From: Formosa sp. Hel1_33_131
GTDB lineage: Bacteria; Bacteroidota; Bacteroidia; Flavobacteriales; Flavobacteriaceae
Length of the DNA stretch: 32,000 nt
Reading direction: 5' to 3'
Assembly (NCBI RefSeq): GCF_001735745.1
Contig: NZ_CP017260.1
Coordinates: 1,290,001 to 1,322,000, forward strand
Of this stretch, positions 1 through 4,015 are shown in pieces. Every line of letters begins with the position of its first letter. The stretch's first letter is position 1. Both the position numbers and the translations under genes were made by a program. The notes under the pieces are model-generated. The model was given only the letters and a program-made list of their open reading frames with translations, searched no databases and was not told the origin of the DNA.

Positions 1-203
1 AACTTTTTCAAAGGAACTTCCAAAGCTTTAGCGATTTCCAAAAGTGAATAGATTGTTGGGTTGACTTTTCCATTCTCCAACTTTTCTAATGCCTGTCTAT
101 CTTTATTGCAAGCACGAGCCAAATCTGACTGACTCCAGCCCTTCTGACTTCTTAACTCAATAATACGCTGACCGACTTTCTTTTTAAGTTGTTCTTTATC
201 CAC
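1..203 (-). CDS. XRE/Cro-C1 family helix-turn-helix regulator (partial; C-terminus runs off the left edge)
   Basis: Not in the ORF track because it is truncated. Manual reverse translation from GTG (203-201) gives VDKEQLKKKVGQRIIELRSQKGWSQSDLARACNKDRQALEKLENGKVNPTIYSLLEIAKALEVPLKK..., a textbook HTH_3 pattern. The start codon is uncertain because there is no in-frame ATG. Confidence 0.7.
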   Translation of the reverse strand, partial: MDKEQLKKKVGQRIIELRSQKGWSQSDLARACNKDRQALEKLENGKVNPTIYSLLEIAKALEVPLKK

Positions 204-210
204 AAAACAA

Positions 211-298
211 ATGTCATCTAATAATATGACATTTTTGTCATACAAAAGTTTGACAACTCAATTTGAATTACTATGTTTGTCATATAAATAGTTGACAA
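211..298. promoter_or_regulatory. Array of three 22-bp palindromic operator-like sites with core TGTCA-N10-TGACA
   Basis: Read directly from the sequence. The sites are ATGTCA-tctaataata-TGACAT (211-232), TTGTCA-tacaaaagtt-TGACAA (235-256) and TTGTCA-tataaatagt-TGACAA (277-298). All arms are perfect inverted repeats with identical 10-nt spacers. Centre-to-centre distances are 24 and 42 bp. The array fills the spacer between the divergent HTH gene and the SymE-like gene. Confidence 0.6.
249..279 (+). promoter_or_regulatory. Bacteroidota-type promoter (-33 TTTG, -7 TAnnTTTG) for the SymE-like gene
   Basis: TTTG at 249-252 and TATGTTTG at 272-279, with 19 nt between them. The TTG start codon lies 20 nt downstream at 299. 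Operator site 3 (277-298) overlaps the -7 box and the expected transcription start. Confidence 0.45.
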
Positions 299-499
299 TT
301 GAGTAAATTCAGGATTTTAAAAATATACAGTAAGTTCCGTTATCGAACGTGGGACAATACAACTGTACCTGAAATAAGACTTGAAGGAAGATGGCTTGAG
401 AAACTCGGATTTGAGCAAGGAAATGAAGTGTTAATTGAACAGAAAAAGAATAAGTTGATAATAACTGTGAAGAAAGAAAAAGAGCATAACACTGTATAA
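299..499 (+). CDS. SymE-like / AbrB-SpoVT-fold small protein (SymE toxin family homolog)
   Basis: 66 aa. The core VPEIRLEGRWLEKLGFEQGNEVLIEQKKNKLIITV resembles the E. coli SymE core [34 protein letters not shown]. The only usable start is TTG at 299, with an in-frame stop at 293-295. Confidence 0.7.
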   Translation: MSKFRILKIYSKFRYRTWDNTTVPEIRLEGRWLEKLGFEQGNEVLIEQKKNKLIITVKKEKEHNTV

Positions 500-783
500 A
501 AAAACATAGGGCATTTCTGCAAACCCGAAAGGTCAGTGAATAATACTAAGTCCGCCAAATATAAAATTTGACGTTTAAGACAAAAAAGATAAAAGCAAAA
601 TATTATATTTGGCTAAGTACCAATTCGTAACGAAAGTGCTTTTAACCGCCCTACGTTTCTTATACGTAGACGTTGAAAAACAGCTAGTTTATAAATATAA
701 ATTCTGCTATTATTTTTATTTTTTAGTAAACGTTTTTGTTTACTAATTAAATATTTTATATGTTTACATGAAACAGCGGAATC

Positions 784-1293
784 ATGTTACCAAGATTAAA
801 TAAAATTAAAGGAATACACCCAGGCACACTGTTAAGGTGGGAATTAAATAACCGAAATCTAAAAGGCAGTGAATTAGCGGATGCGATTGGCGAGCATAAA
901 CAAACCATAAGTGCTATTCTTAATAAAAGGAGGGCCATAAACCCAAGTCTTTCTATTAAGTTATCAAAAGAGTTTAAAACAGACAACGATTACTTCATGT
1001 TATTACAAGCAAGTTATGACGTAAAATTAGTAGCGGAATCTGAAATAAAAAACACACCAAATCTCAATAATATAAGGAAAGTGCTTTTTTGGGATACTAA
1101 TTTTAATAACATTGATTGGAACAAAAATAAAAAAGCCGTCATACAGAGAATTTTAGAAAGAGGGAATAAAACTGAAATAAATGAACTCATTTTATTCTAT
1201 GGAAGAAAAACGATTTCCAAGGAAATTAAATCAATAAAGAAAAGCCACTTACCTTCTTTTGAGAAGAATATTATAGAGCATAATTTGAAATAA
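784..1293 (+). CDS. HigA-type HTH (antidote-like) protein fused to an extra C-terminal domain (probably the Bacteroidota DUF6922-type domain)
   Basis: 169 aa. The N-terminus GIHPGTLLRWELNNRNLKGSELADAIGEHKQTISAILNKRRAINPSLSIKLSKEFKTDNDYFMLLQASYDV matches the HigA/VapI pattern (HPGe.L.e.l...g.s...LA..lg.....is.il.GkR.it....l.L...f......w..lQ..YDl). Residues from about 75 to 169 are not HTH-like (VLFWDTNFNNIDWNKNKKAVIQRILERGN...). The gene ends 4 nt before the next gene. Confidence 0.8.
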   Translation: MLPRLNKIKGIHPGTLLRWELNNRNLKGSELADAIGEHKQTISAILNKRRAINPSLSIKLSKEFKTDNDYFMLLQASYDVKLVAESEIKNTPNLNNIRKVLFWDTNFNNIDWNKNKKAVIQRILERGNKTEINELILFYGRKTISKEIKSIKKSHLPSFEKNIIEHNLK

Positions 1294-1297
1294 CAAA

Positions 1298-1945
1298 ATG
1301 GAGTTATTCTTAAATACTGTTTCCGATTTGCTTTGGAATTCTCTAAAACAATTAATGTCAATGGAGGTCTTTAATAGTTTTAGAATTGTTGGAGGCACCT
1401 CATTAAGTCTTCAACTAGGTCATAGAGAGTCCGTTGACATCGATTTATTTACAGATGCTGATTATGATAGTATCGCGTTTTCTTTACTTGAAACTAAATT
1501 GACTAAAACCTTTCCTTATGTAGATATATCACCCGTTGATTTGGTAGGAATGGGCAAGTCGTATTTTATTGGCAACAATGAAAATGAATGTGTAAAATTA
1601 GATTTATTTTACACAGATCCTTTTGTTTTCCCTTGTATTCTGGAACAAGGAGTTAGGTTTGCAAGTATTGAAGAAGTTGCGGCAATGAAATTTGAAGTAA
1701 TTGCTAATGGTGGCAGGAAAAAAGATTTTTGGGATGTCCACGAACTATTAGAAACTTACACGTTAGATGAAATGATAGACTTTTATCTCAAAAGAAGTCC
1801 ATATGGTTATTCAAAAGATGAATTACTCCTGAAAGTCGTTGATTTTTCTGATGCAGAAGACGATTTTACACCAAACTGCCTTAGAGGAAAAGTCTGGGAA
1901 TTAATTAAGTTAGATTTTGAAGTTAAAACCGATAAAATTATATGA
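1298..1945 (+). CDS. AbiEii/AbiGii-family (DUF1814) nucleotidyltransferase toxin
   Basis: 215 aa. It carries the NTase signature IVGGTSLSLQLGHRESVDIDLF (GG at aa 32-33, DxD at aa 47-49). It also has the family-typical downstream KFEVIANGGRKKDFWDVHELL motif (K...R...D.-D). Confidence 0.85.
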   Translation: MELFLNTVSDLLWNSLKQLMSMEVFNSFRIVGGTSLSLQLGHRESVDIDLFTDADYDSIAFSLLETKLTKTFPYVDISPVDLVGMGKSYFIGNNENECVKLDLFYTDPFVFPCILEQGVRFASIEEVAAMKFEVIANGGRKKDFWDVHELLETYTLDEMIDFYLKRSPYGYSKDELLLKVVDFSDAEDDFTPNCLRGKVWELIKLDFEVKTDKII

Positions 1946-1988
1946 ATCAAAGTCAATAAATTAGAGATTTGGTGGAACCAAAACACTC

Positions 1989-3128
1989 CTAACTATACTT
2001 CGCCTTCCTCAAGATCCGCATACTTTCTTTATAAAGCGCATACACTTCGTCGCTGTGTTTATACAACAACGACTTTGCGGCTTGGAGTTGTGTCAGTGCT
2101 TCTTCAAAACCATTAAAATAACAGATTAAATAGGTCGCAGGAACATTTTTTAAATCTTTGAGCTGCGCCGCTGTTAGCTCAGTCCCTTGTTTAAGTCGGT
2201 CCATAAGTGCGTTGTTCGCATTAAAAATATGGTGTAGAATCTTTTTATCGTATTGAGGCGGCTTAAAAAGCAATTGAGAGTCAATGTTATAAATCGCATT
2301 GTTTCCAAAAGTAATCGTGGTTTCTTCTAATTCATAATACGTATTTTGACCGTTTAGACCAAGATTCACATACTCAATAATCTTAAAAGAATCATTGTCA
2401 TAGGAAATCTCAACGGCATCCAAAGTCGAATAAAACAAGCGCACCTGCTCGTTAATCAACTCAATATCCACTCGCGAATAAAAGGTTTGGGTTTTAAGTG
2501 TCTTTTTCTGTCCAGACCAACACATCACAAAATATTCTTTAAAAACCTTGTATTTTGGATCGTAATCGTTCCGTTTCGCCATAAAATCAAACACCCCGTC
2601 CAACGTATATTGAATGTTGTTTTGAGAATGTGCCTCAATAGACGACACAATTTCAGAATTAGAATCCGTCAATTCAATGTCAAACACTTTGGGCATACTC
2701 ATACTGCCTTCTCTAAAAAACACATTGCCGCCATAATACTTCCAAATATTTTTACGAAGCGAGGTAATCTCTTGGGGGTCTTTGGGGCGAATCGTTACCA
2801 ACCCCACCACCTTATCATCGTTCAAATGCGGAAACGGAATGTTTTCATACTGAATAATTGGTGGGTGACTTAGATAGGCATTAACCAAGTTTTGAATTTT
2901 ACTATCATCAAAAAAATCAACCCCAATAATGTGACTGTACTGATCGTCCACCCCAATCACGATGTATGAATTGTTATTCGGATTGCTATTGGATAGCGCA
3001 CAAATATGTTTCAAAAACTTCGCTTTACCCTCTTTACTGCTAATATTAATTTTTAACTTTTTATCATAAAAACTACTCTCGTCATTATGCGCAAGAAGGT
3101 TTTTGATAAGCAGTCGTTTATTAATCAT
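1989..3128 (-). CDS. AlbA_2 (Schlafen-type, 'divergent AAA') domain protein with an unassigned C-terminal half
   Basis: 379 aa. Residues from about 15 to 150 fit the AlbA_2 pattern: ESSFYDKK...KFLKHICALSNSNPNNNSYIVIGVDDQYSHIIGV...VVGLVTIRP...VFFREGSMSMP. The remaining roughly 230 aa carry no motif I recognise. The start lies only 11 nt downstream of the aldo/keto reductase stop on the same strand. Confidence 0.7.
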   Translation of the reverse strand: MINKRLLIKNLLAHNDESSFYDKKLKINISSKEGKAKFLKHICALSNSNPNNNSYIVIGVDDQYSHIIGVDFFDDSKIQNLVNAYLSHPPIIQYENIPFPHLNDDKVVGLVTIRPKDPQEITSLRKNIWKYYGGNVFFREGSMSMPKVFDIELTDSNSEIVSSIEAHSQNNIQYTLDGVFDFMAKRNDYDPKYKVFKEYFVMCWSGQKKTLKTQTFYSRVDIELINEQVRLFYSTLDAVEISYDNDSFKIIEYVNLGLNGQNTYYELEETTITFGNNAIYNIDSQLLFKPPQYDKKILHHIFNANNALMDRLKQGTELTAAQLKDLKNVPATYLICYFNGFEEALTQLQAAKSLLYKHSDEVYALYKESMRILRKAKYS

Positions 3129-3139
3129 TTTTCAGAGTT

Positions 3140-4015
3140 TTAGAGGACTTCGTAACCTTGGCTGGCCTCTAATATTTTAAACCAATCTTGGATTGTTAAA
3201 TGTATAGAAACAGCTTTCGAAGCTGCTTTGATGTGTTTTAAATTTGTACTCCCGATCACAGGGTGAATCCCCGAAGGATGTTTTAAAATCCAAGCCAATA
3301 ACAACTGACCTGGAGAGGCGTTGTATTTGGTTGTCAACTTTTGTGTTTGGTCTAAAATACGTTTTTTTTGAGATGTCGTTTTAGTACTAAAAACAGCTCC
3401 TAAAGGCGCCCAGGCCATCGGAGTAATTTTATGTGTTAGCATCTGCTCCAAACGTCCATCAAACAGTGCTTGATGTTGCACTGCCGAAAACTCAATTTGA
3501 TTCACATCAACCACCACTTCGCTTGACAAAAGATCAACCTGTGAAGGTGTAAAATTAGACACCCCAAAGCTAATGATTTTACCTTCTTTTTTTAATTGCT
3601 CAACAGCTTCCATAACCTCATAAGGATGCATCAACGGACTGGGGCGGTGAAGTAAAAGCAAATCTAAATACTCCGTGTTCAAATGCTTCAACGACGCCTC
3701 CGCAGAAAAAATGATATAGTCTTTTGAACAATCGTAATGTTTGAGTTCGTTTGGGCGGTTTGAACCCATCAATTGAATTCCGCATTTAGAAATAAATTGA
3801 ACTTTTGAGCGTTCAATCGCCGTTTTAGAAAACGCCGTTCCAAAAGCAGACTCCGTCGTATAGCCTCCATAAATATCTGCATGGTCAAAAGTGCTGATGC
3901 CTAAATCGACTATAGTTTCAATCATGCGTTGCATCTGATTTGGATTGAACTTTTTGCCCCAAGCACCCCAAGACATGGTGCCTGCAATAATTTTTGAAAA
4001 GTTACTTTTATTCAT
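3140..4015 (-). CDS. Aldo/keto reductase, YdhF-like oxidoreductase
   Basis: Alignable by eye with E. coli YdhF (DHADIYGGY..E..FG, LDLLLLHRP.PLM, FGVSNFTPSQ, MAW.PLG). I prefer the ATG at 4015 (MNKSNFSKIIAGTMSWG) over the track start at 4048. Confidence 0.9.
   Translation of the reverse strand: MNKSNFSKIIAGTMSWGAWGKKFNPNQMQRMIETIVDLGISTFDHADIYGGYTTESAFGTAFSKTAIERSKVQFISKCGIQLMGSNRPNELKHYDCSKDYIIFSAEASLKHLNTEYLDLLLLHRPSPLMHPYEVMEAVEQLKKEGKIISFGVSNFTPSQVDLLSSEVVVDVNQIEFSAVQHQALFDGRLEQMLTHKITPMAWAPLGAVFSTKTTSQKKRILDQTQKLTTKYNASPGQLLLAWILKHPSGIHPVIGSTNLKHIKAASKAVSIHLTIQDWFKILEASQGYEVL

Follow-up and report, generated by a model that had tools for sequence, protein, structure and literature searches.

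HTH-DUF6922 as a candidate antitoxin of a compact AbiEii-like nucleotidyltransferase in Formosa sp. Hel1_33_131 and other Bacteroidota

The nucleotidyltransferases (NTases) of the DUF1814 family, such as AbiEii and the MenT proteins, form a major family of translation-blocking toxins, for which the question is how such different antitoxins manage to switch them off. This question is raised by a two-gene locus in a stretch of 32,000 nt from Formosa sp. Hel1_33_131 (contig NZ_CP017260.1, positions 1,290,001 to 1,322,000; this whole stretch is hereafter called the window, and positions are those of the window). Here, a compact AbiEii-like NTase (gene 2) is preceded not by AbiEi but by a protein (gene 1) that combines a HigA-type helix-turn-helix (HTH) domain with the domain DUF6922. 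The two genes recur together as one conserved, self-contained mobile module, and it is very probable that this is a module of the toxin-antitoxin (TA) type, with gene 1 as the antidote.

Anatomy of the two genes

A preliminary description of the locus, made from the letters alone, had reported two co-oriented genes 4 nt apart, of which the first would carry a HigA/VapI-type HTH plus an extra domain and the second, of only 215 aa, the signature of an NTase. It had further proposed that this different HTH class, with its different C-terminal domain, takes the place of AbiEi. The subsequent analysis confirmed the anatomy and supported the proposal: both open reading frames (ORFs) lie where they had been placed, the extra domain is the Pfam domain DUF6922, a model that the description had itself named for checking, the catalytic residues of the NTase are present (Table 1), and the AbiEii, HigA/HTH_3 and DUF6922 profiles all matched, while the AbiEi models gave no match. 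The product of gene 1 is 100% identical to FORMB_12150 (Formosa sp. Hel1_33_131), and that of gene 2 to a Formosa protein annotated as 'conserved hypothetical protein (DUF1814)'.

Table 1. Features of the HTH-DUF6922/NTase locus, in window positions
Feature	Position	Strand	Basis or remark
Predicted operator, perfect palindrome TTAGTAAAC-N6-GTTTACTAA	723..746	.	Repeat search
Predicted Bacteroidota-type promoter: -33 TTTG (735-738), -7-like TATGTTTA (759-766)	735..766	+	Read from sequence
Gene 1, HigA-type HTH + DUF6922 protein, predicted antitoxin/autorepressor	784..1293	+	169 aa; profile matches, AF2 model
HigA/XRE HTH domain, aa 9-83	808..1032	+	TIGR02607 above cut-off, HTH_3, Foldseek TM ~0.8
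DUF6922 domain, structural aa 90-165, Pfam match aa 97-148	1051..1278	+	PF21956, domain-only AF2 model
Gene 2, compact AbiEii/DUF1814 nucleotidyltransferase, predicted toxin	1298..1945	+	215 aa; PF08843 E 8.3e-17
NTase motif I, G32-G33	1391..1396	+	Invariant among homologues
NTase motif II + candidate phosphoacceptor, R43-E-S45-V-D47-I-D49	1424..1444	+	R43, S45, D47 invariant; D49 at least 90%
NTase motif III lysine K131, in AAMKFEV	1688..1690	+	Invariant; matches MenT1 K137 by position and spacing
NTase motif IV +DxxD, K142-D143-F-W-D146	1721..1735	+	Invariant GRKKDFWD block; matches MenT1 D149/D152

The N-terminal part of gene 1 is matched by Pfam HTH_3 (aa 17-67, E 8.8e-9) and by the NCBIfam HigA profile TIGR02607, with 50.7 bits versus a cut-off of 47.7. 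In the AlphaFold2 (AF2) model of the full-length protein (66 diverse homologues; pLDDT 91.2, pTM 0.59) two domains are seen, the five-helix HTH domain being followed by a long helix (aa 70-88) and then by a separate small helical domain. Comparison of this model with the PDB using Foldseek returned exclusively HigA/GraA/PA4674/VapI-type proteins among the top 40 matches, and the neighbours of the HTH domain (HigA of P. vulgaris, HigA/PA4674 of P. aeruginosa, GraA, VapI and YbaQ) superimpose over ~80 residues. By both profile and structure, gene 1 thus has the HigA-family XRE HTH that characterises the antitoxins of HigBA, a type II TA system.

The second domain is recognised by PF21956 (DUF6922) over the entire profile (positions 1-52 of 52), at E 1.9e-23 and 82.1 bits versus a cut-off of 27, and its conserved core reads LFWDTD..IDW...K.AVI.RVFERGN..E..EI.RFYG. 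Modelled on its own, the domain is predicted to be all-alpha (pLDDT 93.7, pTM 0.84). Compared with 350,000 PDB chains, this model gave nothing significant (best E 3.4), the same was true of viral predicted structures, and profile searches of PDB sequences with DUF6922 returned no significant match either. A sub-threshold similarity to PUF/Pumilio at aa 108-140 (window about 1105-1203) appeared in three different searches; it is probably noise, and the idea that DUF6922 is a PUF/Pumilio RNA-binding repeat was set aside, the matches being weak and inconsistent.

With regard to AbiEi, its Pfam family does not match gene 1 at E<=1, the PADLOC AbiEi models do not match it, and no AbiEi family is found among the 25 families listed of the 43 that 66 diverse gene 1 homologues match at E<=1 (each of the other families being matched by at most one member). 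That the C-terminal part of gene 1 is homologous to the C-terminal domain of AbiEi, which would have made the pair an ordinary AbiE, is thereby ruled out, given the missing Pfam signal, the all-alpha fold and the lack of a PDB match; as judged from profiles and models, DUF6922 is a domain distinct from the AbiEi antitoxin domain.

Gene 2, in turn, is matched by positions 10-176 of the 238-position PF08843 profile, a family that is present in 27/27 of its homologues. The homologues also match other NTase families (DUF2204 and DUF6036) weakly, and the PADLOC AbiEii models match gene 2 at E 3e-4, which is likewise weak. DUF1814 proteins share four motifs, being hGG/S (I), DxD with an Arg (II), a Lys (III) and +DxxD (IV) (Dy et al. 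2014). All four, as required of an AbiE toxin, are found in gene 2, and they are invariant or nearly so in the 27 homologues, which share 45-84% identity. The nearest solved relative is JHP933 of H. pylori (PDB 4O8S, E 5e-6 in a family profile search), whose R-F-S-E-D-L-D aligns with motif II of gene 2, while single-sequence and narrow-profile PDB searches with gene 2 gave no match at all, and thus none to a MenT or AbiEii structure.

Linkage, operator and decay of the pair

The HTH-DUF6922/NTase pair is no rarity, but a large family that is already annotated in databases. There are 400 DUF6922 representatives at 50% identity, and clustering at 90% identity gives about 2,900 groups, whose members are for the most part 150-180 aa long and go by the name of 'HigA/VapI antidote' in the sources; the pair as such appears as 'HigA family antitoxin' plus 'AbiEii/AbiGii toxin'. 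At least 535 DUF6922 loci occur in 185,579 species-representative genomes, almost all of them of Bacteroidota. In the best 80 of these loci, 79 of which have a callable DUF6922 ORF, an NTase lies immediately 3' of the DUF6922 gene in 70 of the 79, with a gap of typically -4 to +15 nt; the other nine are contig ends, orphans, or insertions separating both genes. When the NTase was used as the seed, the HTH-DUF6922 gene was found directly upstream in 10/10 loci on viral contigs (47-61% identity) and, for 76 intact metagenome NTases (51-89% identity), in 62/62 assessable cases, the other 14 being cut by contig ends. The pairing thus recurs in well over 100 independent loci, the features of the locus are far beyond chance, and DUF6922 occurs essentially with this NTase subfamily only.

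The co-occurrence on which the preliminary description depended therefore extends far beyond this genome, and its statement that the combination had not been tried also agrees with what was found: a literature search gave no publication mentioning DUF6922 or PF21956, and the partners of DUF1814 toxins in the literature consulted are COG5340 (AbiEi), COG4861 and MenA1, with DUF6088 or 'hypothetical' in a marine survey. The components are already catalogued in databases, while HTH-DUF6922 would be a new antitoxin class for a DUF1814 NTase.

The genes around the pair differ completely from locus to locus, and neither neighbour in the window (the ORF at 299-499 or the Schlafen/AlbA_2-DUF5929 gene) recurs in ~170 related loci. 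The pair is found on plasmids of Microscilla, Phocaeicola, Bacteroides and Hymenobacter, as well as on viral or prophage contigs, and in several loci it adjoins Abi_2, restriction-modification (RM), TIR, Fic or HEPN/MNT genes. In the Formosa window, the GC content of positions 1-2000 is 0.30-0.32 versus 0.37-0.41 in the following 10 kb, which would fit a small TA/defence islet that was gained by horizontal transfer and lies beside core genes. It is the conserved pairing amid unrelated flanks, together with the plasmid occurrence and the low GC, that identifies the two genes as a self-contained mobile unit.

A further conserved element is the palindrome 5' of gene 1. Its core, TAAAC-N6-GTTTA, precedes the gene 1 homologues in 70/70 loci versus 0.06 expected from shuffled controls; in most cases the centre lies 41-53 nt ahead of the gene 1 ATG, and the DNA around it is otherwise unrelated among these 70 loci; in the 32-kb window it occurs once. 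Promoters of Bacteroidota follow a layout of TTTG at -33 and TAnnTTTG at -7 (a sigma-70 promoter scan is uninformative for this phylum). In the window, the -33 TTTG falls inside the palindrome, namely in the spacer and the right arm, and the -7 box has its final G replaced by A, while 40 of the 70 loci have a TAnnTTTG box that begins 20-21 nt past the final arm's G, counted from the right half of the palindrome. Since the palindrome overlaps the promoter, a bound HTH dimer would occlude the latter, which implies autorepression; we consider this highly probable. At the level of sequence, the order of the two genes, their spacing of 4 nt and a palindrome that covers the -33 box are what is seen; autoregulation like that of the bicistronic AbiE operon would be the predicted consequence.

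Two further repeats were noted in this region. Nine loci (among L003-L012, L019 and L030) have a second, slightly degenerate copy of the palindrome (e.g. AGTAAACAAAATTGTTTAT), located ~20-25 nt upstream of the main one, a sequence arrangement that suggests cooperative two-site repression in one subclade. In the window, an imperfect inverted repeat (TGTTTACATGA / TCATGTTACCA at 761-771 / 782-792, 82% complementary) extends across both the -7-like box and the start codon of gene 1, and includes a third GTTTAC half-site.

If gene 1 is the antidote to gene 2, the two genes should not decay alike. For 94 non-redundant loci (DUF6922-seeded plus viral) that were sorted by intactness, with gene 1 judged by ORF length, both genes were intact in 68; gene 1 was intact with a truncated NTase in 8 and with no NTase adjacent in 7, and an intact NTase with a broken gene 1 was seen in 0, in a sample whose DUF6922 seed favours intact gene 1. 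The remaining loci were contig-edge cases or fragments. In the NTase-seeded set, 3 further loci have a truncated NTase with an intact gene 1 and 0 have the reverse. That the NTase is lost but gene 1 never is the pattern predicted by the addiction logic of a TA pair. NTase decay appears to be common in this family; NTase pseudogenes were recorded 3' of an intact HTH-DUF6922 gene in L018, L029, L036, L038, L045, L062, L066, L071, L109, L110 and L164.

Relation to known systems and possible routes of neutralisation

The module shares most of its organisation with AbiE of Streptococcus agalactiae and Lactococcus lactis: both are bicistronic, the gene for the regulator/antitoxin preceding that for a DUF1814 NTase with motifs I-IV, both have a bipartite antitoxin with an N-terminal DNA-binding and a C-terminal domain, both have inverted repeats in the promoter, and both reside on mobile elements and in defence islands. 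The AbiEi/COG5340 antitoxin, however, consists of a winged HTH and the AbiEi C-terminal domain, neither of which gene 1 has; instead it carries an XRE/HigA-type HTH and an all-alpha domain of ~70 aa, without AbiEi Pfam signal or structural match. In addition, the NTase is shorter than AbiEii, and the two long repeats of AbiE are replaced by a single 5+6+5 palindrome operator.

The reverse holds for HigBA/GraTA. In its N-terminal domain, gene 1 has a genuine HTH of the HigA family, which by analogy is expected to sit as a dimer on a palindromic operator, whereas the toxin of HigBA is a ribonuclease of the RelE/HigB fold that is usually encoded upstream, and HigA proteins are without a DUF6922 domain. 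Here, the order is antitoxin-first, the downstream partner of gene 1 is the AbiEii NTase, and a HigB-like ORF was not found in window 1-3200. Differing from AbiE in its antitoxin and from HigBA in its toxin, the module belongs to neither as defined. Partner swapping of this kind is a familiar theme among TA modules.

A compact DUF1814 NTase with a non-AbiEi antitoxin is also found in MenAT1 of M. tuberculosis (MenA1-MenT1, Rv0078B/Rv0078A). MenT1 and gene 2 share R-x-[ST]-x-D-x-D, the Lys and +DxxD, with a spacing of 12 residues from the Lys to motif IV in both, although single-sequence and profile PDB searches with gene 2 gave no direct sequence match to MenT1. The antitoxins differ clearly: MenA1 is small, lacks an HTH and is SymE/AbrB-like according to TASmania, whereas gene 1 has a DNA-binding domain plus DUF6922. 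JHP933, finally, is of similar size (232 aa) and has the same motifs as gene 2; it is encoded in the H. pylori plasticity zone, with no DUF6922 partner known.

While anatomy, linkage and operator conservation are established by the comparative evidence, the biochemical steps are all inferred, and together they would describe a bicistronic, autoregulated, abortive-infection-like TA module. Gene 1 would dimerise via its HTH domain on TAAAC-N6-GTTTA and thereby repress the operon, while its DUF6922 domain would bind and neutralise the NTase. Upon loss or degradation of the gene 1 product (e.g. by phage infection or loss of the mobile element), active toxin would be freed. According to the literature, MenT1, MenT3, MenT4 and AbiEii nucleotidylate tRNA 3' ends and block translation. 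From this family knowledge, gene 2 may be expected, like MenT1, MenT3 and AbiEii, to add nucleotides to the 3'-CCA ends of tRNA, blocking aminoacylation and with it translation; by this analogy the tRNA 3' end is a reasonably likely target. A direct contact between DUF6922 and the NTase is likely, and the entire model, with direct neutralisation by DUF6922 as its last step, is slightly favoured.

As to how such contact could silence the enzyme, MenA1, MenA3 and AbiEi are structurally unrelated, and yet all of them induce auto-phosphorylation of a Thr/Ser two residues before the DxD of their toxin (PMC11375011; bioRxiv 10.64898/2026.01.19.700257). MenAT1 is in this respect a precedent for an unrelated small antitoxin with this effect. 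The corresponding pattern of type VII systems (Arg, Ser/Thr, DxD) is R37-x-T39-R40-D41-x-D43 in MenT1, which is followed by K137 and D149/D152, and begins as R76-x-S78 in MenT3 (PMC11375011). It is present in gene 2 as R43-E-S45-V-D47: Ser45 lies two residues before D47, is preceded by R43, and is invariant in all 27 homologues. This invariance, at the phosphoacceptor position of MenT1, MenT3 and AbiEii, makes antitoxin-induced auto-phosphorylation at Ser45 plausible, and by analogy with MenA1, MenA3 and AbiEi the likeliest route would be that binding of the antitoxin pushes the active-site loop, upon which the toxin phosphorylates its own Ser45. That neutralisation proceeds in this way, as opposed to plain sequestration, is put forward tentatively, with the balance leaning a little against it.

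Plain sequestration would amount to a classical type II system, in which DUF6922 sterically blocks the active site of the NTase without covalent change and turnover of the labile antitoxin frees the toxin. Steric blocking is what HigA-type antitoxins, like others of the XRE class, do by default, and it would fit the tight operon coupling and the decay asymmetry equally well. In addition, MenA1-MenT1 and AbiEi-AbiEii form stable complexes with an occluded active site (PMC11375011; bioRxiv 10.64898/2026.01.19.700257). For AbiEii and MenT1, however, the complex alone was reported not to be enough to neutralise the toxin in vivo once the phosphoacceptor has been mutated (bioRxiv 10.64898/2026.01.19.700257), and the invariance of Ser45 in the gene 2 family likewise speaks against pure blocking, which we regard as unlikely.

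Several observations weigh against the model with direct neutralisation and Ser45 phosphorylation. The role of DUF6922 is a prediction, and the domain could instead serve in dimerisation or as a sensor. Gene 2 is tied to the MenT/AbiEii toxins via Pfam and JHP933 only, and not by a direct sequence match. In MenT1, the Ser/Thr at the phosphoacceptor position also serves the NTase activity, so that invariance of Ser45 is no proof of its phosphorylation, and MenT4 is not phosphorylated despite its COG5340 partner (bioRxiv 10.64898/2026.01.19.700257). Most of the weight of the decay asymmetry lies with the NTase-seeded sets. The palindrome, furthermore, is missing in the most divergent loci (5/10 viral, 22/61 metagenome), which presumably use a different operator.

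If DUF6922 were indeed an oligomerisation domain or a ligand/phage sensor, gene 1 could be only a repressor, with the NTase kept harmless by low expression. Such purely transcriptional control is in line with the conserved operator that overlaps the promoter, with the persistence of orphan HTH-DUF6922 genes without an NTase (L021, L040, L087), and with the full-length AF2 model, in which DUF6922 is an independent domain (pTM 0.59). The near-restriction of DUF6922 to this NTase subfamily is nevertheless hard to square with a generic oligomerisation domain, repression alone is seldom enough for a potent translation toxin, and full antitoxicity in AbiE requires no more than the C-terminal domain (Dy et al. 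2014), all of which makes this explanation improbable.

Even less probable is that the two genes are no TA pair at all, the NTase being a non-toxic modifying enzyme (e.g. for nucleotidylation of small molecules or antibiotics, or for RNA repair) with a dedicated transcription factor. It is true that JHP933 is without an established toxin function in its published description, and that there are the weak matches to DUF2204 and DUF6036. A harmless enzyme would, however, be at odds with a decay asymmetry that never leaves the toxin only, with the frequent NTase pseudogenes, with the patchy, mobile distribution on plasmids and in defence islands, and with the sharing of all DUF1814 toxin motifs, including motif IV. 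Finally, it is extremely improbable that DUF6922 is a PUF-like helical RNA binder that protects or competes for the RNA target, as a type IV antitoxin without toxin contact, since the PUF/Pumilio matches (E 0.05-0.6 for the profile against the PDB, E 5 for 3h3d in Foldseek, and Pfam PUF below threshold in 10/66 gene 1 homologues) are all non-significant and lost with a tighter alignment, the unrelated families Tricorn_C1 and ACAS_N match equally weakly, and a single unit of ~70 aa falls far short of the size of a functional PUF array.

Surroundings of the pair and its significance

To the left of the pair in the window lie a partial XRE-type HTH gene (1-203, minus strand), which runs off the window end, and, divergent from it, a 66-aa SymE_toxin/AbrB(MazE)-like ORF (299-499, plus strand; Pfam SymE_toxin E 1.4e-10), separated by a region (about 205-298) rich in repeated TTGACA/TGTCAT motifs. 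The two are possibly a separate small TA-like pair. The SymE/AbrB-like ORF, of the class to which TASmania assigns MenA1, was considered as a part of the module and ruled out, as it recurs in none of the ~170 related loci. On the other side, convergent with gene 2, a 379-aa Schlafen/AlbA_2 (E 3e-12) plus DUF5929 (E 2e-103) protein is encoded (1989-3128, minus strand); it has a weak PADLOC PDC-S50 match and may serve in defence, and at other loci it does not accompany the module. Beyond the islet, the translations, read by eye, suggest core genes: an aldo-keto-reductase-like ORF and an operon of the MoxR/DUF58/Bat-like kind.

Some other loci have conspicuous surroundings of their own. In L048 (3250-6209), an intact HTH-DUF6922 gene is separated from an NTase remnant, which sits at the locus end, by an inserted RM cassette that consists of a C5 cytosine methyltransferase, a putative endonuclease and an HTH controller, and in L057 a different insertion, which includes a HigB/HigA-like pair, parts gene 1 from the NTase. 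In L083/L084 (1-4777, Flavobacterium), the gene for an LRR-Roc-COR-TIR protein of 1,384 aa, which may be a defence NTPase, is directly followed by a 78-aa remnant with DUF6922 only and, after that, by a complete HTH-DUF6922/AbiEii pair. Gene 1 homologues of the orphan/truncated set are followed, by eye, by a Fic-motif protein (HIFGEGNTR; L043, 3617-4639), an Abi_2/AbiD-F-like protein (L064, 3320-4225) or a 219-aa AbiEi-like protein (L082, 3536-4195), and an Abi_2 gene (Pfam) lies 5' of the Bacteroides pair in L089 (807-1745). These last four contexts suggest defence-island hotspots.

An exhaustive search also gave many DUF6922 proteins of 60-110 aa. Those that could be placed turned out to be orphans, remnants or mis-called starts: P0491 lies 5' of a complete pair, P0258 stands alone, and P0423 is in fact a 151-aa ORF with an operator but without an NTase. 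DUF6922 as a stand-alone small antitoxin was therefore rejected, and the HTH fusion is taken to be the canonical form.

With thousands of clusters, the pair spans plasmids of gut Bacteroides and Phocaeicola as well as marine Flavobacteriia. Defence-system finders that are built on AbiEi plus AbiEii models will probably miss it, because the PADLOC models match gene 2 weakly and gene 1 not at all. The pairing gives DUF6922 a concrete candidate role and makes Ser45 an independent test case for the auto-phosphorylation model, while the conserved operator would, as predicted, provide a ready-made repressor/operator pair for Bacteroidota genetics. A bolder proposal, which we consider rather unlikely, is that HTH-DUF6922 is a fourth, structurally new antitoxin class whose helical domain has independently converged on triggering the auto-phosphorylation of Ser45. 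If true, induced auto-phosphorylation would be inherent in the toxin fold in general, whatever the partner, and marine and gut Bacteroidota would possess in this module a widespread abortive-infection system that currently goes unannotated.

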